The notes beneath the pieces were generated by a model. The model had not been told where the DNA came from, did not search any database, and worked only from the letters and a program-made list of their open reading frames with translations. A stretch of 64,000 bases of DNA, from the IMG/VR virus record IMGVR_UViG_3300019888_000002, positions 67,158 to 131,157 of that record; one strand, 5' to 3'. Position 1 is the first letter of the stretch. The number at the start of each line of letters is the position of its first letter. The DNA is from a virus. Below, in pieces: positions 18,349 through 32,545 of this stretch. The translations under genes were made by a program, and so were the position numbers.

Positions 18349-18563
18349 CAGTCCACCTGAGTGTTCCGGTCGTCGGAGCCCTGGTACTCCCGCAGAATGT
18401 CGTCGTCGGAATAGATGTCGGCCATCCGCATGGACGACCCATCCGGCCCCGCAGCCTCCCGTTCCACCAACCCCCGCTCGTCGTCCAGCACATCGTCCAG
18501 GATGTGATCCTGCACGTACGAACTCGGTGACGGGGTCGACCCCCTACCCTCCGGACCGATCAT
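18348..18563 (-). CDS. Acidic hypothetical protein
   Basis: ATGA overlap. Confidence 0.45.
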   Translation of the reverse strand: MIGPEGRGSTPSPSSYVQDHILDDVLDDERGLVEREAAGPDGSSMRMADIYSDDDILREYQGSDDRNTQVD

Positions 18564-18865
18564 CGGAACAGGTCCGGCTCTTCGAAATACCCGCTCCACG
18601 GTTCCACCGTCGGATCGAAACCCTCCGGCAGACCCTCCACCGCGATCGAAGCGTTGGACCACATGGCAGCCTGCTGAAGCGCGGTGAGCGCCAGATTCCG
18701 GTGTCGCCCGGGCCGGGTCATGTCCATCACGGTGACGGCCATGGCCTTGTACGAACGCCGGATCGTCTCGTGTGCCTTGACGCTGAGCGCGTTCGGCGGA
18801 TGGTAATCGAACCGGTTGAGCACCTCGACCACCTCCTTGGCGCTGAACTCCTCCTCATTCGTCAC
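18560..18865 (-). CDS. Acb2/Tad1-like helical-hairpin protein (putative cyclic-nucleotide sponge)
   Basis: NRFDYHPP...HETIR...PGRHRNLALTALQQAAMWSNASIA resembles the Tad1 helix SRENACALTHVEEALMW (recalled from memory). Confidence 0.6.
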   Translation of the reverse strand: MTNEEEFSAKEVVEVLNRFDYHPPNALSVKAHETIRRSYKAMAVTVMDMTRPGRHRNLALTALQQAAMWSNASIAVEGLPEGFDPTVEPWSGYFEEPDLFR

Positions 18866-18989: not shown

Positions 18990-19155
18990 TTCGAATCCTT
19001 CTGCTTTGTGCACGGTTGTTGGTAGCCGTCGTCTTCGCATCCGCAATCCCGGCACCTGCGTCCGCGACCGAGCGTGGTCTTGCTCCACGGTTCCCAGTCG
19101 TGATCGCCCGAACCTTTGATCCGAGGAAGGCGTCCGTCGATAGTGAGGTGCTCGG

Positions 19156-19590
19156 TCACGGTGTCTTCACGTCCCCGCGAAAGGACGTGCGCCGTTCTTC
19201 GTCGGTGCTCAGTTCCCGCACGGTATAGGGATCGTGACCTGGTCCGTGATTGGGCGCAAAGGGCCTGAAATCGTCATCGAGCACGAACCACTCGCACGCC
19301 TCGTGCGTCTCCACCTCGATCACCCGGTCGAAGAGCCAGCGCCGCCACGACTGCTCGTTGTAGCTTGCGGCCGGAACGATGAAAAAGTGCAGCACACCCC
19401 GATTGATCTCGTGATGATAGGTGTCCGGCCCCACCACCTGAATCGTGAGGGTCAAACCCTCGGACCCTTGTCCCCGATCGATCTCTCGAAGGTTGAAACA
19501 CCAGTTGGCCTTGTACGTGAGCCGGGACACCAGGTCCGCCAGCGCCGTGGGGTACGGCGCGCTCTGAGTCATCGGCTGCTCCGGCATCAC
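19156..19590 (-). CDS. Hypothetical protein
   Basis: AGGAGA RBS; ordered globular-looking sequence. Confidence 0.65.
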   Translation of the reverse strand: MMPEQPMTQSAPYPTALADLVSRLTYKANWCFNLREIDRGQGSEGLTLTIQVVGPDTYHHEINRGVLHFFIVPAASYNEQSWRRWLFDRVIEVETHEACEWFVLDDDFRPFAPNHGPGHDPYTVRELSTDEERRTSFRGDVKTP

Positions 19591-19910
19591 CGTTCTCCTT
19601 CGGGCCGAATGTCGAAGGTCCGCTGAATCCAGCTGCCCCCCTCGTGGTCGACGGCCATCAACGCGACACCCTCCGAACTCGGCTGGAAGCCCGGAGTCAG
19701 AGACTGGGTGGAATGCCGCATCGCCTGCCGCAACGATCGCAGATGATTGTCACAGGCCGTGTCGATGAGCGTCTCGAGATCACCCACCGGCATAGTCCCC
19801 TTCCGTTCCTCCTCGAGACTCTGGTGCAGCAGCAACGACAGCACGGCCCGGATCAGGTCCCGCCGAGTGGACTCGGGACTCGGATAGTGCGGGAACGGAC
19901 TCTTGCTCAT
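19587..19910 (-). CDS. Hypothetical protein
   Basis: GAGGA RBS; start uncertain. Confidence 0.5.
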   Translation of the reverse strand: MSKSPFPHYPSPESTRRDLIRAVLSLLLHQSLEEERKGTMPVGDLETLIDTACDNHLRSLRQAMRHSTQSLTPGFQPSSEGVALMAVDHEGGSWIQRTFDIRPEGER

Positions 19911-20005
19911 CGGATCATCTTCCTCTCGACCCCCGACGGAAACGACCCCCGGAACCCCCGTGCGGCCGCCCCAAACGGCCGCCCGAGCCTGTTCGGCGTC
20001 GGCGC

Positions 20006-20116
20006 TCACATTTCCCCTGCCCGGCCGGTGTTGCGGACGCAGGAAAGCACTCCGGCGATCACCAGACCCATGTAGACCCCGACGGCGAGACCCAGCACGA
20101 TCGACACGAACCTCAC
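20006..20116 (-). CDS. Small membrane peptide
   Basis: MRFVSIVLGLAVGVYMGLVIAGVLSC; GTGA overlap. Confidence 0.45.
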   Translation of the reverse strand: MRFVSIVLGLAVGVYMGLVIAGVLSCVRNTGRAGEM

Positions 20117-20265
20117 GGGCGTATCTGACACAACTGGTCCACCCCGAAATGACTCCAGTACCAGACCCCCACCCCGAAACCGACGGTCCCGAAGCTCAGC
20201 ATCCCGACGATGCTCACGAAGAGCAGGTTCTTCGCCATCACGACCAGAGACGAATCACCGCTCAT
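20113..20265 (-). CDS. Small membrane protein
   Basis: MSGDSSLVVMAKNLLFVSIVGMLSFGTVGFGVGVWYW; ATGA overlap. Confidence 0.5.
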   Translation of the reverse strand: MSGDSSLVVMAKNLLFVSIVGMLSFGTVGFGVGVWYWSHFGVDQLCQIRP

Positions 20266-20417
20266 CGGATACTCATCTCGTCGGAGATCTCATAGACGTG
20301 TGCGACGACATTGCCCGCGTAGTCGCTGGTGTCCTCGTACCAGGTATGGCCGGTGGGATCGACATGGTGTTGCCCGTCGCAGTCCTCCGCGATACAGAAC
20401 AGAGCCTTGCATCTCAT
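20262..20417 (-). CDS. Small Cys/His protein
   Basis: MRCKALFCIAEDCDGQHHVD; GAGGAGAG RBS. Confidence 0.55.
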   Translation of the reverse strand: MRCKALFCIAEDCDGQHHVDPTGHTWYEDTSDYAGNVVAHVYEISDEMSIR

Positions 20418-20446
20418 ACCGCTCTCCTCAGGTCGATTGCCGAAAA

Positions 20447-20553
20447 TGGGGTGGACCAGGGAGGAATCGAACCTCCGACCACGGATAACACCGACTCTTG
20501 CCGAGTCCGCTGCGCAGCATGTGCCCCTTGCTCTACCACTGAGCTACCGGCCC
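20447..20553 (-). ncRNA. tRNA-like RNA with aberrant, enlarged anticodon domain
   Basis: Acceptor GGGCCGG/CTGGTCC plus discriminator A, D arm GCTC-AGTGGTA-GAGC, T arm GGAGG-TTCGATT-CCTCC, variable GGTC, 3' ACCCCA; about 47 nt in place of the 17-nt anticodon arm; intergenic. Confidence 0.8.
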
Positions 20554-20557
20554 CTTG

Positions 20558-20713
20558 TCATTCGACCGAACCGATCTCCAGGTCGTGCGCCATCCACCCG
20601 TTGTCGTGCACCAGATCCGACAACCGGCTCTCGGCGTCGTCCCGGGTGTCGAGACCCGCCTCGATCTCGTCCCCGGTCACGGCGTTGAAGATGACATACT
20701 CCTCGCCCGGCAT
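20558..20713 (-). CDS. Small acidic hypothetical protein
   Basis: GCGGAGG RBS. Confidence 0.5.
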   Translation of the reverse strand: MPGEEYVIFNAVTGDEIEAGLDTRDDAESRLSDLVHDNGWMAHDLEIGSVE

Positions 20714-20715
20714 CG

Positions 20716-20901
20716 TCAGAACCTCCGCTCGCATCGCCAGGGACCGATCAGCCAGGTGTGGCCCCGCCAATAGATGCGCAGCCGCCTGTTCGATGTCGCC
20801 GGGTGCCCGTCGAACCACGTCGTGGTGGCGTGGTGGACGCTGATCAGACGTTTGTCCAGCGCCGTGAAGCCCAACGAGTCCCGCACATGAACGACGTTCA
20901 T
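20716..20901 (-). CDS. Hypothetical protein
   Basis: ATGA overlap. Confidence 0.45.
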   Translation of the reverse strand: MNVVHVRDSLGFTALDKRLISVHHATTTWFDGHPATSNRRLRIYWRGHTWLIGPWRCERRF

Positions 20902-21293
20902 CCGATCCTCTCTTGGGTCGCCTCGAGCACCTGCACATTGGTCTTCCCGAACTCCGTCTCCAGCCCCCGCTGCACCCGTTCGAGGAACCCGCTGCTCGAG
21001 ATCGGATCGAGATCGGGGGGCACCCGCAACGCCACGGTGAGCGTGAGGAAGCGCCGCTCCCAGGGTGCGGAATCCTCCCGGGCACAGACCTCGGTCCTGG
21101 TCGAGGTGCTCACGACGTACCGCGACTGCGGGTTGCCGACGGGATGCAACTCGACCGAGATCATCGAGCCGTCCATCCCCAGGTAAGGCCGCGACACCCC
21201 GAAGATCAAGCACTCCTCCCCGTTGTTACGGATGACGTGCCCGGGCCGAAGATCGGCCACGGGCATCTTGTCCCAGAGTGCCCGGTCGGTCAT
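20898..21293 (-). CDS. Hypothetical protein
   Basis: GGAGG RBS; ATGA overlaps. Confidence 0.6.
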   Translation of the reverse strand: MTDRALWDKMPVADLRPGHVIRNNGEECLIFGVSRPYLGMDGSMISVELHPVGNPQSRYVVSTSTRTEVCAREDSAPWERRFLTLTVALRVPPDLDPISSSGFLERVQRGLETEFGKTNVQVLEATQERIG

Positions 21294-21445
21294 CCGTCCT
21301 CCGGATCGTCGCTGTAGGGGTGCTCGGCACCCTCTTCCATCACCGAATCCCAGTACCCCAGTGCGTCGGGGTCGATCTCGTCATTGTCCTCGAAATCGAA
21401 GTTCGGGTCCATCCGGTGAAAGCGGTCCATCGTGGTGTCGATCAT
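21290..21445 (-). CDS. Highly acidic 51-aa peptide
   Basis: MIDTTMDRFHRMDPNFDFEDNDEIDPDALGYWDSVMEEGAEHPYSDDPEDG; GAAGGAACCCCC before ATG; not in the ORF track (<60 aa). Confidence 0.65.
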   Translation of the reverse strand: MIDTTMDRFHRMDPNFDFEDNDEIDPDALGYWDSVMEEGAEHPYSDDPEDG

Positions 21446-21467
21446 GGGGGTTCCTTCCGTCGGTTGC

Positions 21468-21505
21468 TGCTACACCTATGGTACAGCATCGGTACAGGAA
21501 GTCAA
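21468..21505 (-). promoter_or_regulatory. SigA-like promoter with inverted-orientation heptads
   Basis: TTGACT-N16-TACCAT; GTAC at 21481 and 21492 (11-bp period). Confidence 0.7.
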
Positions 21506-21672
21506 TCCCCTCTCATCAGGGATCGCTGCTCGTGCATCTTCTCGAGCCGTCGGTTCATCTCGGCATCGACCTCCGCGACATCACGGCCGAGCTGCTTGCG
21601 CCGGGCGTCCAGCTCCGTCAGACTCATGGCCTCGAGGTTCACGGGCGGAACCAGCTCGTTCACCCTTTTCAC
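21502..21672 (-). CDS. Small coiled-coil protein
   Basis: GTG overlapping the upstream stop. Confidence 0.45.
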   Translation of the reverse strand: MKRVNELVPPVNLEAMSLTELDARRKQLGRDVAEVDAEMNRRLEKMHEQRSLMRGD

Positions 21673-21974
21673 CCGCGCCGATATTTGTTCTCGAAGATGT
21701 CGTTCTTGATGGGGTAGAAACCGTGTGAATCCTTCGCCACCCATTCTCCGACCTCCAGGGGTAACCAGGACTCGTTCGCATCGACATAGAGGTTCGCCGT
21801 ACGTCCGACGACCCCTTCACCGGGAGAAATGACCGCCCTCGACACAAACTTCGGTCCGCACCACTCCAGCACGGCGTCGGTACTGTCGGGCTCCCCCGTC
21901 CACTGCATGGCCACGATCTCGGTGGGAACGGAGACGTAGGTCTGCGGTTCCGTCGACGCATTCCGAAAGCTCAT
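21669..21974 (-). CDS. Conserved phage protein (beta-rich, 'G.W......FYP.K.DIF...Y' family)
   Basis: IVAMQWTG...VGEWVAKDSHGFYPIKNDIFENKY. Confidence 0.65.
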   Translation of the reverse strand: MSFRNASTEPQTYVSVPTEIVAMQWTGEPDSTDAVLEWCGPKFVSRAVISPGEGVVGRTANLYVDANESWLPLEVGEWVAKDSHGFYPIKNDIFENKYRRG

Positions 21975-22246
21975 GACGAAGCCCCCTCTTCGTCCGCATG
22001 GTTGCAGCCGGGAGAGAGCCACCCCGGGAATATCTTGCTCCACAGGGCCATCAGATCTCGGAGCGGCACGATGACGTCGATATCCTCGTTCTCGTTGATC
22101 ACCCTGATCAGCTCGGGCTCCACGTTGTGATAGGCCAACCGGACCCGGCGACGTTCCCCGTCGAGATAGACCACTTCGTCGGGGGTGTGCGGATCGAGAG
22201 TGTCGTACTCCATCCCGTCCACGATCATCCTGGGAGAAACAGGCAT
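21971..22246 (-). CDS. Hypothetical protein
   Basis: ORF; start uncertain. Confidence 0.45.
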   Translation of the reverse strand: MPVSPRMIVDGMEYDTLDPHTPDEVVYLDGERRRVRLAYHNVEPELIRVINENEDIDVIVPLRDLMALWSKIFPGWLSPGCNHADEEGASS

Positions 22247-22311
22247 CACAGCGCCCACAGCCGGGTCAGCAGCAGGTAATAGATCAGGTTCCCGAGTTTG
22301 CGGATCATCAC

Positions 22312-22518
22312 TCACCATCCTGTCCCCAATCGTCGCTGTTGTCCGGACTGACTCAGGGCCAGCTGCTCCCGCAGGTACCTGATCTCCTCGACCAGAGGCT
22401 GCTCCCCGGTCACGGCGGTGTACGAACGGTGCGGGCCGGGATGGGCGTAGGTCTGCGAACACGTGACATCCGAACAGTTCCCGGTGCGGCCGTTGTCCTT
22501 GGTGAGCCCGGAGGGCAT
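22312..22518 (-). CDS. Hypothetical protein
   Basis: AAGGAG RBS. Confidence 0.5.
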   Translation of the reverse strand: MPSGLTKDNGRTGNCSDVTCSQTYAHPGPHRSYTAVTGEQPLVEEIRYLREQLALSQSGQQRRLGTGW

Positions 22519-22529
22519 CGTCGTCTCCT

Positions 22530-22793
22530 TCATCGGGCATACACCTCCGGATGTGCCAGCCACTCCGGCAGAACGGTGGGAGCGTCCTCGGGGCTCAGCT
22601 TCATGTCGTGGAACTTGGCCTGCTTGAAGACGTTCTCCCGGTCGTACATCACGATCAGCCGGATCATGCCCTTCCCGAAACTGTCGTAGGTCGGCCCGGA
22701 CACTCGTTGCCAACCCTTGAGCCGGGCCTCCTTGGCCACGGCGGCACGACCCAGCTCGATCCTCTTCATGGCTTCATCCTTGGCTTCATCCAC
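22530..22793 (-). CDS. Hypothetical protein
   Basis: ORF track. Confidence 0.55.
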   Translation of the reverse strand: MDEAKDEAMKRIELGRAAVAKEARLKGWQRVSGPTYDSFGKGMIRLIVMYDRENVFKQAKFHDMKLSPEDAPTVLPEWLAHPEVYAR

Positions 22794-23080
22794 CTTCGCA
22801 TCGGGTCTCTGTTCTCCGGGATCACATAGGGGTTGCTGGCCTGCTTCCCACCCTGGGGCTCGGTCCAGTTGACCTTCGGGAAATCATCGATACAGGCGTC
22901 GTAGCCGTTGTTCCAGGCTTGGTAGAGCGGATCGAGCCTCTCCCAGAGTCCGCGCTCCTTGGCCTCCAGAATCGATCCGATGATCTGCCGGGAGATCAGG
23001 CCGATTCCCAGCAGAACGAGACACAGGAGGATGACCACCGAAAGCGTGGACACCATATCGATCGCCCACCGGCTCAGCAT
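22766..23080 (-). CDS. Membrane-anchored protein
   Basis: N-terminal TM helix; AWNNGYD...NPY. Confidence 0.55.
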   Translation of the reverse strand: MLSRWAIDMVSTLSVVILLCLVLLGIGLISRQIIGSILEAKERGLWERLDPLYQAWNNGYDACIDDFPKVNWTEPQGGKQASNPYVIPENRDPMRRWMKPRMKP

Positions 23081-27927: not shown

Positions 27928-28139
27928 ACGAGATCACTCTGTCCCAATACGGCAGCCTTGGTCTTGGTAGGGGTGACGTCGGCGGCATACCAGGTCACCG
28001 TGGCCCCCGACCACGAGCGCCCGAAGGCGGCAAACGTCACCGGACCGGTATGCGGTCCCGCATGAGCAGAAGTCCCGGCGTTGGTGCATGTCACGACCAC
28101 GGCGGTGCCGGGGAACGTCTTGGTTACTCCACACGCCAT
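27924..28139 (-). CDS. Small fibre-associated protein
   Basis: [27 protein letters not shown] and ATGA overlaps. Confidence 0.55.
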   Translation of the reverse strand: MACGVTKTFPGTAVVVTCTNAGTSAHAGPHTGPVTFAAFGRSWSGATVTWYAADVTPTKTKAAVLGQSDLV

Positions 28140-31100
28140 TATGCGTACCTGCCTCTCAGCTGGACATGAACAGGATCGGGAACCACGGCAGTGCCCTTGG
28201 TGAAGTACGCCCGGATCACCGCATTGGCCGCGCACGCCTGTGGCGTACCCAGGGTCGTGATGATGTTGTTCGAACCCACAGTGAGCGTGATGGTCGAGAG
28301 CAAGGTGCCCTGTGTGGTTGCGGTGCCGGAGTAGATGGCGATGGTCAGGTTTCCGGTGCCCACCGTCCCGGCCAGGTTGCCGATGCGCACCCAGATCGCA
28401 TCCAGGATGACGCCCGCAGCGGCGATTCCCGGCTCCACCGCGATACCACCGGGCATGTCGTTGTAGCCGTCCACGATGGAGACGGAGTTGCACACCATTT
28501 CCGGGCACCACGGAATGGTGGCATTGTCCACCTTGGCATTGAGCGCCGTCTGCTGTGCGGTACTGACCGGCTTGCCTGCATCGGAGGTGTTGTCGACACT
28601 TCCCAGACCCACATCACCCTTGACGATTCCGGTCGGTGTGACAAGAGCGGGAGATGTGGCGAAAACCGCTGCGCCGGAACCCGTTTCGTCCGACAGGACG
28701 CCTTTCAGTTGTGCCGAAGTCGTCGCGGCGAACTGTGACAACGGGTTGGCGACCAGGGCATCTCCGCCACCGGCAGGCAACGTCTGCCAGGTCTTGTCGC
28801 CACGCCAGTACTGCCCGGTGGTACCCGCCGCGATAGTCGGTTCCTTGGTCGCATCGGCCACGGTGACGTTCGCCGTGCCGTCGAAAGCAACCCCGTTGAT
28901 GTTTCGAGCGGTAGCAAGTTTGGTGGCCGAGGCAGCATTGCCCGACGTGCTCTGATTCAGCGTCGGGAACGTGTTCGTACCGCTGGTGAGGTCCTTGTTC
29001 GTCAGGGCTACGGCTGCCGCGTTCTTGGTGGTGTCGCTCGTGTTATCGACATTGCCGAGGCCCACGTCACCCTTGACGATTCCGGTCGGGGTGTTGACGA
29101 CAGGGCTGGTCAGGGTCTTGTTGGTGAGCGTGGCCACGGCCGCGTTCTTGACGGCATCGGAGGTGTTGTCCACATTGGCCAGACCGACGGCTGTCTTGTC
29201 CAAGGTCTGCCAGGTCTTGTCACCCCGGTAGTACTGGGCACTGGTTCCCGCCGCAAGCGTGGGTTCCTTGGTGGCGATGCTGGTGGCCTGCGCGGTGCTG
29301 ACCGGCTTGTTCGCGTCGGACGTGTTGTCCACATTGGCGAGACCGACATCGGTCTTACCGAGAACGACGGCCCCCACCTGAGAGTTGACCGAGGTGACCA
29401 CATCGGTCGAAGAGGACAGGGCACGCCAGTTACCGAGCACCGAAGGATCGGCTGCCATCAGCATGAACGTGCCTGCGCCGTCGGAACGCACAGCCAGATC
29501 GCCCGGCTGGACCTGACCCGTGGTCAACGCCAACATGGCAGCCTGGGACGCCACAGCTACCGAAGTGATCAACGAGAGGGGCGGCATCTGACTCGTCGGG
29601 ATGATGCCGCCCACGAGATCGGCCTTGGCTGCCAATGCAGTGGTGGTGGCAGTCGAGACGGGCTTGTTCGCATCGGAGGTGTTGTCGGCGTTGCCGAGAC
29701 CGACGGCTGTCTTGTCGAGCGTGGCCCAGGTCTTGTCACCCTTGTAGTACTGCGCAGTCGTTCCGGCCGCAACAGCAGGTTCCTTGGTCGCGTCGGCGAT
29801 CGTGATGGCTGCGGTGCCGTCGAAGTTCACCCCGTTGATGGCCCGCGCCGTCGCCAACTTGGTGGCGGAAGCCGCGTTGCCCGTCGTGCTCTGGTTCAGG
29901 GTCGGGAAGGTGTTCGTGCCGGAGGTCAGGTCCTTGTTCGTCAGCGCGACAGCGGCAGCGTTCTTCGTGACATCCGAGGTGTTGTCGGCCGAACCGAGAC
30001 CGATCGAAGCCTTGTCGTGGGTAGCCCAGGTTTTGTCTCCCCGGTAATACTGACCTGCGGTTCCGGCCGCAAGGGTCGGTTCCTTGGTGGCGATGCTCGC
30101 AGCCTGCGCGGTAGAGACGGGCTTGTTCGCATCGGAAGTATTGTCCACATTCGAAAGACCGACAGCCGTCTTGTCCAGAGTGGCCCAGCTCTTGTCACCC
30201 TTCCAATACTGCGCGGTGGTCCCGGCCGTGATGGACGCTTCTTTACCGTTGAGCGCGGTCTGGGTTGCCGTGCTGACCGGCTTGTTGACATCGGAGGTGT
30301 TGTCCGCGTTCCCGAGGCCGACATCGGCCTTGCCGAGCACGACAGCACCGACCATGGCATTAACGCTCGTGACGACGTCGGTCGAGCTGGAGAGCGCCCG
30401 CCAGTTTCCCAGCACCGAGGGGTCGGCTGCCATCAACATGAACGTGCCCGCGCCGTCGCTGCGCACGGCCAAGTCGCCTGGCTGCACCTGTCCCGTCGTC
30501 AGCGCCAGCATCGCCGCCTGACTGGCGACCGGCACCGACGTGATGAGCGAGAGCGGCGGCATCTGACTCGTGGGGATGATTCCCCCCACCAGGTCCGCCT
30601 TCGCCGCGAGCGCGGTCGTGACAGCACTCGAGACCGGCTTGTTTGCGTCACTGGTGTTGTCCACATTGCCGAGGCCGACGTCGGCCTTGACCAGAGTGAC
30701 CACACCCTGTTTGCCCGCCACCGAGGTGACCAGATTGGTGGCGGGGTCACCCGCTGGTCCCTGGATACCCTGAGGACCGGTGGCCCCGGTGTTCCCGGCC
30801 GGACCCTGTGCACCGGTCGAGCCGGTAGTGCCCTGAATACCCTGGGCTCCGGTGGCCCCCGTGGTGCCGGTGGCACCGGCCGGACCGGTCGGACCGTCGG
30901 CCCCCGTCGGCCCGGTGTCCCCGATCGGGCCTTGTGCTCCGGTGGCCCCGGTCGGACCGGTGTTCCCGATCGGACCTTGTGCCCCGGTGGTGCCGGTGTC
31001 ACCCTTGACACCCTGAATGCCCTGCGAGCCTGCGGGACCGGTGGCCCCCGTGGTACCAGTGAGACCGGTGTCTCCGGTGAGACCGATCGGACCTTGCACG

Positions 31101-32545
31101 CCGTCGGGACCGACAGGCCCGACATCACCCGTGTCCCCTTTGACACCCTGAGGACCTGCTACACCTTGTGCCCCTGTAGGACCGGCCGCACCTGTCGGGC
31201 CGGTAGCTCCAATGGAACCGGTGGTGCCGGTCGGTCCGATGGTGCCTTGCGGACCTGCGGGGCCGACATCACCCTGGGCTCCGGTGACACCGATGGGACC
31301 GGTCGGACCGTCGGCTCCGACGTCACCTCTGGCTCCCGCCGTACCTTGCGGACCGGTGAGGCCGATCGAGCCCTGGTCACCTGGGTCACCCTTGTCACCC
31401 TTGTCTCCCTTGAACGGGACACCAGCGGACTCGATGGGGAAAGAGGTACCGGACCAGACATAGAGCAGACCACTGGTGTTGACCAGATAACCCTTGCCGG
31501 AGTCGGTCGAAGTAAGAGTAGTGGGGAGGTCGGCATAGGTGTCCACGCTTCCGGCGAGGTTGATGCCGGAACCCTGGGCTCCGGTGTCTCCCTTGACACC
31601 CTGAATGCCCTGCGGCCCGATGGGACCGACATCACCCTGGGAACCGGTAGGGCCACTCGGGCCGATGGGACCGAGGTCGCCCTGTGGGCCTGGTGATCCC
31701 GTGGCTCCGGTCAGGCCGATGGTGCCTTGAGGGCCTGTAGCGCCGATGGGACCGGTGGTGCCCTGCGGACCTGCGGCCCCGGTGTTGCCGGTGGTACCGA
31801 TGGGACCCTGAGCACCGGTTGTGCCCTGTGGGCCTGACGACCCGGTGGCTCCGGTGGGGCCGACAGCGCCCTGGACTCCGGTGAGACCCTGAATGCCCTG
31901 ATTGCCGGTGTCGCCCTTGTCGCCCTTGACCCCGGTAGCACCGATAGGACCTTGCGGACCGGTGTTCCCCGTGGGTCCCTGAAGACCAGTGTCGCCCTTG
32001 GGTCCCTGGCTTCCGGTGGGGCCGGTGGTCCCGGTCGGACCGGTGGTGCCCTGGATACCCTGGGAGCCGGGGAGACCGGTGTCACCCTTGATGCCTTGCG
32101 GACCTGCGAAACCGATCGGCCCCATAGATCCTTGCGGACCGAACGGACCTACAGCCCCCTGATCTCCGGTGTCCCCCTTGGTGCCCTGAATACCCTGGGG
32201 TCCGAGCGGACCGATGACACCCTGCGGTCCCGGTACCCCCTGAGGACCGAGTGGGCCGATCAGCCCCTGAAGTCCTTGTGGCCCCTGACTACCGACGTCA
32301 CCCTGCGGCCCCTGTGCTCCGGTGTCTCCTCGAGGACCGGTGAGCCCGAGTGGTCCGACAGGACCAACATCACCCTTGACACCCTTCGGGCCTTGCGGAC
32401 CGATGTATGCCTCCCCGTTGGGGAGGTACCCGAGCCGCTCCGGGTCGATCGGCACAGGGGGGTGTGTCGGTGACGGAGTCGGCGATTCGGGAGATGTGTC
32501 CCCGGGTGGGGTGGGACCCTCGCCCGTGAATTCGTTCCATCCCAC
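28139..32545 (-). CDS. Long collagen-like tail fibre protein (1468 aa)
   Basis: About 500 aa of Gly-X-Y repeats with one interrupting globular domain, then repeated VGL(G/A)NVDNTSD(A)NKP(V)S shaft units, duplicated knob modules and a C-terminal beta tip. Confidence 0.9.
30740..32400 (-). repeat. Gly-X-Y collagen triplet repeat region
   Basis: 9-bp periodicity (GPQ/GPT/GAT/GDT units), interrupted at about 31410-31570. Confidence 0.95.

Follow-up and report, generated by a model that had tools for sequence, protein, structure and literature searches.

The phage genome examined here carries, on its minus strand at window positions 20447-20553, a tRNA-like gene whose RNA, as judged from its sequence, can probably be processed and loaded with alanine but cannot decode. 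The acceptor end carries the alanine identity set, which was overlooked in the original prediction for this locus and is the most informative feature of the element. The anticodon arm is replaced by a central domain of 53 nt. We posit that the RNA is a non-decoding tRNA mimic with alanine identity, a reading for which we consider the case about evenly balanced; with low confidence, we suggest that it may act in trans on a host protein.

Phages and the defences of bacteria contend over tRNA pools, which are one of their main battlegrounds, and the tRNA genes of phages tend to be interpreted as codon supply or as replacement parts. A non-decoding RNA that keeps an alanine mark does not fit the codon-supply picture. 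That such genes recur in phages unrelated to one another suggests that their function is linked to the acceptor end; it might lie in charging, in 3'-end chemistry or in the binding of tRNA-handling proteins. These genes are under-counted because standard annotation misses them, as in the present case, where the default mode of ARAGORN finds nothing. The element described here comes from an actinophage; its D arm is fully intact and its central domain is enlarged. Because it is a singleton, it extends this group of RNAs by one example but says little on mechanism.

The phage genome and the locus

The window, by which we mean the whole stretch of 64,000 nucleotides that was analysed, is the right-hand 64 kb of a complete virus genome of 131,157 bp with direct terminal repeats and 61% G+C. 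Among its gene products are a DnaE-type polymerase, RecA and a baseplate J protein. According to its DnaE, the nearest cultured relatives are large phages of Rhodococcus, Gordonia and Mycobacterium at 42-49% identity, namely the Rhodococcus phages E3 and Finch, the Gordonia phage Stormageddon and the Mycobacterium phage Phrappuccino. Judged by this protein similarity, the virus is a phage of mycolic-acid bacteria.

The element had been predicted to be solitary and intergenic, and both points hold. ARAGORN and the Rfam tRNA model (RF00005) find no second tRNA genome-wide, which leaves it as the sole tRNA-like gene of the phage, and it is contained in a 140-nt gap between small minus-strand ORFs. 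The letters quoted in the original prediction are those of the RNA-sense sequence; the element itself lies on the minus strand. Its parts and surroundings are as follows, in the order of transcription:

21478..21505 (-): nearest promoter-like site, TTGACT-16-TACCAT, about 925 nt upstream of the element; consensus match only
20558..20740 (-): upstream small ORF, its stop codon 4 nt before G1 of the RNA; no family match
20547..20553 (-): 5' strand of the acceptor stem, GGGCCGG, RNA positions 1-7; 7/7 pairs with 20453-20459, including G3.U70 and G6.U67
20530..20544 (-): D arm, GCTC-AGTGGTA-GAGC, with A14, G15, G18, G19 and A21, from the Rfam alignment and the checklist of invariants
20477..20529 (-): central domain of 53 nt, replacing position 26, the anticodon arm and the variable loop
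20460..20476 (-): T arm, GGAGG-TTCGATT-CCTCC, from the Rfam alignment and the checklist of invariants
20452..20459 (-): 3' strand of the acceptor stem, CTGGTCC, and discriminator A73, from the Rfam alignment
20447..20451 (-): 3' trailer CCCCA, followed by TTTT; C74 and C75 are encoded, A76 is not
20262..20417 (-): downstream ORF of 51 aa, its ATG 29 nt past the trailer, with the ribosome-binding site GGAGAG; no family match

The ORFs flanking the element matched no family in our searches, and no terminator-like site was detected in window 19000-23000. We infer that the element is co-transcribed with a minus-strand operon of small early-type genes.

A complete tRNA frame

The original prediction of a canonical tRNA frame is confirmed. 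Window 20452-20553(-) scored 46.2 bits with RF00005, for which the curated cut-off is 29 bits (E = 1.1e-6 when the window is searched, 5.5e-10 when the genome is), and by score, arms and core invariants the element belongs to this family. In the alignment, 41 nt of the element stand where the model expects 11. Outside this region standard or G.U pairs are found throughout, with 7/7 pairs in the acceptor stem, 4/4 in the D stem and 5/5 in the T stem (16 stem pairs). All 14 core invariants that were checked are present (U8, A14, G15, G18, G19, A21, C48, G53, T54, T55, C56, G57, A58 and C61). In the RNA, the acceptor stem reads GGGCCGG/CUGGUCC with two G.U pairs, 3:70 and 6:67, and its 5' strand is followed by U8 and A9. 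Because every checked core invariant is present, a fold like that of a genuine tRNA is expected for the elbow and for the acceptor/T-arm half.

The exact 5' half of the element is shared with ordinary bacterial tRNA-Lys(UUU) genes, which have G3-C70, and with a small number of tRNA-Ala(UGC) genes, in which G3.U70 is combined with the same CCGGUCC-A end. The frame is therefore that of a normal class I scaffold, made alanine-like by the wobble at 3:70. Past A73 the tail reads CCCCA, in agreement with the ACCCCA end reported earlier. This end is not a conserved peculiarity, however, since the 3' tails vary among the analogues described below.

The central domain and decoding capacity

The D arm is separated from the T arm by 53 nt, compared with about 23 nt in a class I tRNA, which gives a net excess of about 30 nt. 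Inserts of about 17 and 13 nt had been proposed, but how the excess is split depends on the stem that is chosen as the anticodon stem. Both the palindrome GCTGCGCAGC and the hairpin GACTC-GGCAA-GAGTC are located in the central domain, and the suggested pairing of GGCAC with GTGTT is present as well. The three-way junction that these elements were thought to close is possible, but has no thermodynamic support: folding gave three mutually exclusive models of -35 to -39 kcal/mol, within about 4 kcal/mol of each other, and neither the central domain (z = -0.1) nor the whole RNA (z = -0.47) showed extra stability compared with shuffled sequence. None of the three stop codons (TAA, TAG, TGA) occurs in the 53 nt in any frame. 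The central domain has no repeat or significant match elsewhere in the phage genome. An origin from a repeat or mobile insert was rejected, as the sequence has no second copy there.

A functional decoder combines an in-register anticodon stem of 5 bp with a 7-nt loop that has U33 and, at position 37, a purine; the element lacks this combination. ARAGORN, one of the checks proposed with the original prediction, reported no tRNA or tmRNA in its default mode, either in the window or in the whole genome. Its intron mode (-i) did return a call, a tRNA-Met(CAT) with a 31-nt intron, in which A33 takes the place of U33, G37 stands beside U36 and the stem contains a G.G mismatch. We enumerated every 5-bp stem with at most one mismatch in combination with all single excisions after which a 7-nt loop with U33 and a purine at 37 remains. 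No excision in this exhaustive enumeration started one base past the D arm and left a variable loop of 4-5 nt. Because no single excision yields a canonical arm in register, the element cannot present an anticodon in normal geometry, and on the evidence of its sequence it cannot read codons. A role as decoy for anticodon nucleases, among the functions first offered, is unlikely, since there is no anticodon loop to cut.

Alanine identity at the acceptor end

Read from the sequence, the acceptor end carries G1-C72, G2-C71, G3.U70 and A73. These are the marks of tRNA-Ala and tmRNA, and alanyl-tRNA synthetase (AlaRS) reads them without the anticodon. As the marks sit at the acceptor end and are independent of the anticodon, the element is probably chargeable with alanine by the AlaRS of the host. 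Engagement of a synthetase fits best among the roles that had been offered at first.

The G.U pair at 3:70 could be due to chance in this copy, because the acceptor stem contains two such pairs (3:70 and 6:67). Two pattern scans of IMG/VR bear on the group as a whole. The first, based on the T arm and the GUCC-A end of the element, returned eight canonical tRNAs (Tyr, Lys, Met and Val), all with A3-U70, as well as non-canonical tRNA-like genes, about seventeen of which are independent; G3.U70 was present in fourteen of the seventeen. The second was an open sample in which the 3:70 pair was left free. Here, G3.U70 was present in 16 of 41 non-canonical and in 2 of 42 canonical phage tRNA-like genes (Fisher p = 1.4e-4, with kin counted separately), and both canonical genes were called tRNA-Ala. 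We judge that the excess among the non-canonical genes would persist if they were counted by lineage, which reduces the sixteen to about ten. The alanine signal is thus clear at the level of the class. The mark is common in this class, not obligatory, because one of the syntenic analogues described below (L148) has A3-U70. Two further scans served as controls only: the earliest broad pattern scan returned mostly giant-virus tRNA-Tyr genes with introns, and a scan of metagenomes mostly archaeal intron-bearing tRNA-Ala genes.

Analogues in other phages

No orthologue of the element was detected by blastn against cultured phages, whether with the 2-kb region or with the element alone, nor by pattern scans of IMG/VR and of GTDB genomes with sequence words of the element itself. 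The flanking proteins did not lead to one either. The upstream ORF of 131 aa is an ORFan, and the more than 600 homologues of the 144-aa ORF nearby are found in unrelated phage contexts with no tRNA-like gene alongside. The related phages E3, Finch, Stormageddon and Phrappuccino have no counterpart, and the single tRNA of Stormageddon is a normal tRNA-Arg(CCT). Since no orthologue was found in any collection searched, covariation and conservation are absent for this copy.

Genes of similar build are present in other phages. The 'tRNA-OTHER' genes of Microbacterium phages (for example gene 68 of Marcie, OP172871; unannotated in Fizzles, MW924638) share with the element an acceptor of the type GGGCNGG/CCNGTCC with G3.U70 and A73, the T stem GGAGG/CCTCC, an intact D arm and a non-canonical anticodon arm. 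Among them G3.U70 is retained through a compensatory change at 5:68. Unlike the element with its enlargement of about 30 nt, they have small anticodon arms (a 6-nt loop or a tetraloop hairpin), and they are located between the genes for SSB and RuvC. The similarity to the element is confined to the generic arms and so does not imply common descent.

Four IMG/VR analogues (L153, L405, L406 and L408) resemble the element in having an intact D arm and an enlarged middle, and four minimal ones (L133, L134, L160 and L164) measure 42-57 nt in total, with little beyond the acceptor and the T arm. In three phages of about 70 kb (L139, L148 and L153), the tRNA-like gene is found at the same site just upstream of a Prim-Pol/DUF3987 primase gene and is preceded by a strong GC hairpin. 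The acceptor stem of one of these genes (L139:2012-2119) exactly equals that of our element. L139 and L153 share 87% DNA identity over 2.1 kb. Within their elements only the acceptor strands and the T arm align, and the central 76 and 86 nt do not. Because these central domains cannot be aligned despite the identity of the flanks, this comparison of sequences points to the acceptor/T-arm half as the part that is conserved and to a middle that is either exchangeable or fast-evolving. No neighbour protein is common to the locus of the element and 30 other loci with such elements, and the analogues match no Rfam family beyond the generic tRNA model.

Several other groups of tRNA-like genes were encountered. 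Genes of 63-85 nt on five IMG/VR contigs (L170, L178, L188, L194 and L254) resemble the tRNA-like domain of tmRNA alone, with a GGGGGTG acceptor containing G3.U70, a D-loop motif of the GGATTCGA type, one hairpin, a T arm and in some cases an encoded ACCA; they are too small for a tag frame. A conserved family of tRNA-like genes of about 76 nt (L130, L135, L136, L138, L140, L145, L156-L158, L165 and L204) is encoded on AT-rich, probably marine viral contigs. Its members consist of a GGGCGTG acceptor (GGGGACG in L204) with G3.U70, followed in most by ACGGGTAAG, one long hairpin and a T arm, and L140 contains a different, longer hairpin module. Three genes (L407, L351 and L154) have extra sequence inside the D loop, not in the anticodon arm, which is absent. 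Six soil metagenome contigs (L288, L299, L307, L321, L377 and L390) carry tRNA genes with G3.U70, in which GGGCCTG or GGGCTTG is combined with CAGGTCC-A. In these, the 5' side of the anticodon loop is longer by about 22 nt, and several read TTGTAAA or similar in the 3' part of the loop.

Relation to known RNA classes

The closest described RNAs are the tRNA-like domain of tmRNA and YrlA (PMC4201824). With the tRNA-like domain of tmRNA (SsrA), the element shares G3.U70, A73, a canonical T arm and the absence of an anticodon. tmRNA is an alanine-accepting, anticodon-free RNA that AlaRS reads through the acceptor end alone. However, it has no true D stem, a length of about 350 nt, pseudoknots and a tag reading frame with a stop, whereas the element has a perfect D arm, a length of about 105 nt and no stop in its central domain. 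ARAGORN -m reported no tmRNA, the tmRNA_permuted model gave 8.5 bits against a cut-off of 47, and the other Rfam tmRNA models were not among the listed matches. A mini-tmRNA was rejected, with neither a stop codon nor a model match.

YrlA RNAs, which occur in mycobacteriophages, are likewise non-decoding mimics of the tRNA acceptor, D and T arms. That of M. smegmatis undergoes cleavage by RNase P and addition of CCA (Chen et al., 2014, PMC4201824). The Ro-binding stem of YrlA, which contains the ends of the RNA, takes the position of the anticodon, and the 'acceptor' is a closed stem-loop; the RNA carries the motif GNCGAA(N)G and is encoded next to rsr (PMC4201824). The element has the topology of a normal tRNA, not a permuted one, and the motif is absent. 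The YrlA model (RF02553), also proposed as a check of the original prediction, gave 12.5 bits, below its cut-off of 69, and a TROVE gene (Ro/Rsr, PF05731) is absent from the complete phage genome.

Archaeal intron-bearing tRNA-Ala genes have a near-identical acceptor (GGGCCGG/CCGGTCC-A) and an enlarged anticodon region. They differ in their readable loop (C-U-UGC/GGC-A), in the position of the intron at 37/38 and in splicing by the archaeal endonuclease. The element contains no alanine anticodon loop, and the relatives of its phage infect Rhodococcus, Gordonia and Mycobacterium.

With the anticodon-less alanine-type mimics of other phages, the element has in common G1-C72, G2-C71, G3.U70, A73, a canonical T arm and the lack of an anticodon loop. 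A published description of anticodon-less, alanine-marked tRNA look-alikes in phages was not found in the literature searched. The element thus joins a kind of phage RNA that is recurrent and apparently undescribed.

Proposed function and alternative explanations

The phage genome contains no genes for RtcB, AlaRS, SmpB, PolyA_pol (the CCA-adding enzyme family), RNA_ligase or FemAB. T4 Rnl1 also had no match, a weak negative in that the profile matched no control genome either. As the phage lacks AlaRS, the PolyA_pol family and FemAB, any processing and charging must rely on host enzymes.

We propose that the RNA would be transcribed within the operon of small genes and cut at G1 by host RNase P, as expected from the specificity of this enzyme, and that host 3' nucleases and the CCA-adding enzyme would complete an ACCA end. 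RNase P, like the CCA-adding enzyme, needs only an intact acceptor/T-arm half and elbow, and processing is predicted because both are intact in the sequence. On the strength of its identity marks, the RNA would then probably be charged with alanine by host AlaRS. A central domain without a 7-nt U33 loop on an in-register stem would exclude it from decoding. In the weakest step, held with low confidence, the RNA might occupy a host protein that recognises the acceptor/T-arm half of tRNA or alanyl-tRNA; a defence toxin that targets tRNA 3' ends and a quality-control factor are candidates. Our first choice of role, though a weakly supported one, is that the RNA binds host proteins of tRNA handling or of defence. 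We favour a trans-acting mimic that engages a protein recognising the acceptor end because it is the acceptor/T-arm half that stays constant across the class, in which the alanine mark is also enriched.

A wider reading, which we advance tentatively and hold to be clearly less probable, is that many phage lineages make an alanine-charged look-alike that never decodes, with the constant acceptor/T-arm half as its working part. A host factor with activity on tRNA 3' ends or alanyl-tRNA would take the RNA as bait or substrate; examples of such a factor are a defence toxin, a component of ribosome rescue or of quality control, and an enzyme of aminoacyl transfer. The central domain, which changes fast, might be inert or under diversifying selection to escape recognition. 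If true, such RNAs would form a new class among viral small RNAs and represent a new layer in the conflict between phage and host over tRNA.

The unalignable middles of close relatives may also be viewed differently. Central domains that are wholly different while the frame is kept are expected of exchangeable payloads, and the element could be a natural tRNA scaffold, in which the frame, here an ordinary one of the Lys/Ala class I type, serves only excision and stability and a payload of about 50 nt does the work as a protein-binding or antisense module. Engineered tRNA scaffolds, in which foreign RNA replaces the anticodon arm and the frame provides processing and stability, are man-made, and no natural phage counterpart was found described in the literature searched. 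We consider this explanation unlikely. It leaves the enrichment of G3.U70 among non-canonical phage tRNA-like genes unexplained, the payload is not unusually structured and matches nothing else in the phage genome significantly, and the minimal analogues of 42-57 nt (L133, L134, L160 and L164) are almost without payload.

The tight fit of the element between two ORFs, 4 nt past a stop and 29 nt before a start, and the absence of a promoter or terminator of its own would suit a cis-acting processing signal. The tRNA shape would draw RNase P and 3' nucleases to cut an early polycistronic mRNA between two small genes, so that its two parts differ in stability, and the released RNA would have no function of its own. 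The acceptor/T-arm half suffices for RNase P, and the strong hairpin directly before the element in the Microbacterium phages and in the phages of the L139 type could cap the upstream mRNA after cleavage. No strong hairpin precedes the present copy, however, and a cis signal would require neither the intact D arm and elbow nor the alanine marks. We therefore regard this explanation as improbable on its own; it is compatible with a role in trans and not exclusive of it.

We give a similarly small chance to a recently disrupted tRNA gene of the Lys, Ala or Met type that is decaying after an insertion into its anticodon arm. Consistent with this, no orthologue shows maintenance of the element, its 5' half is identical to that of bacterial tRNA-Lys(UUU) and some tRNA-Ala(UGC) genes, and the related cultured phages are without such a gene. 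But outside the anticodon domain none of the 16 stem pairs and 14 core invariants is damaged, and no repeat or mobile sequence of the phage genome corresponds to the insert. More than one clean insertion would be needed, as no single excision restores a canonical arm, and the same build arises independently in many phages. The earlier preference for a tRNA-like non-coding RNA over a decayed pseudogene is the better supported of the two, because arms and invariants are intact, the genome is compact and the build recurs in many unrelated phages, but it is not proven for this copy, which has no orthologue.

An intron-containing tRNA-Met(CAU) spliced to a working tRNA, in line with another of the roles first offered, is very improbable: it can draw on the ARAGORN -i call and on 83% identity of the first 35 nt to tRNA-Met genes of Campylobacter phages, but the called arm is flawed (A33, G37 next to U36 and the G.G mismatch), no excision gives a canonical arm in register, Rfam (Intron_gpI) finds no group I intron in the element, 31 nt are far too few for a bacterial one, RtcB and RNA ligase are absent from the phage, and G3.U70 would make such a tRNA-Met accept alanine. 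To our knowledge, bacterial tRNA introns are group I ribozymes of at least 200 nt.

Neighbouring genes and other features of the window

A gene 1.6 kb downstream of the element on the same strand (window 18560-18865(-)) encodes a protein of 101 aa that matches the Acb2/Tad1 hairpin domain (Pfam PF24729, 2.7e-13, 50.3 bits) as well as phrog_1454. This domain is the fold of phage sponges directed against CBASS and Thoeris signals, and by this match the protein is likely a counter-defence protein of the sponge type. The presence of this one gene nearby is a hint, no more, that the region around the element holds counter-defence genes.

The 144-aa protein mentioned above (window 19156-19590(-)) belongs to phrog_1540, and its more than 600 homologues come from widely differing phage contexts, in which terminase and portal genes are often their neighbours. 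One homologue with 51% identity is encoded on a viral contig fragment (L123) that contains two group I introns, at 57-348 and 1001-1226 (Rfam Intron_gpI, 60.8 and 66.8 bits). Elsewhere in the window, an ORF of 1468 aa (28139-32545(-)) contains extensive collagen triple-helix repeats (PF01391, 3.5e-72) and, judged by these repeats, probably encodes a tail fibre or decoration protein.
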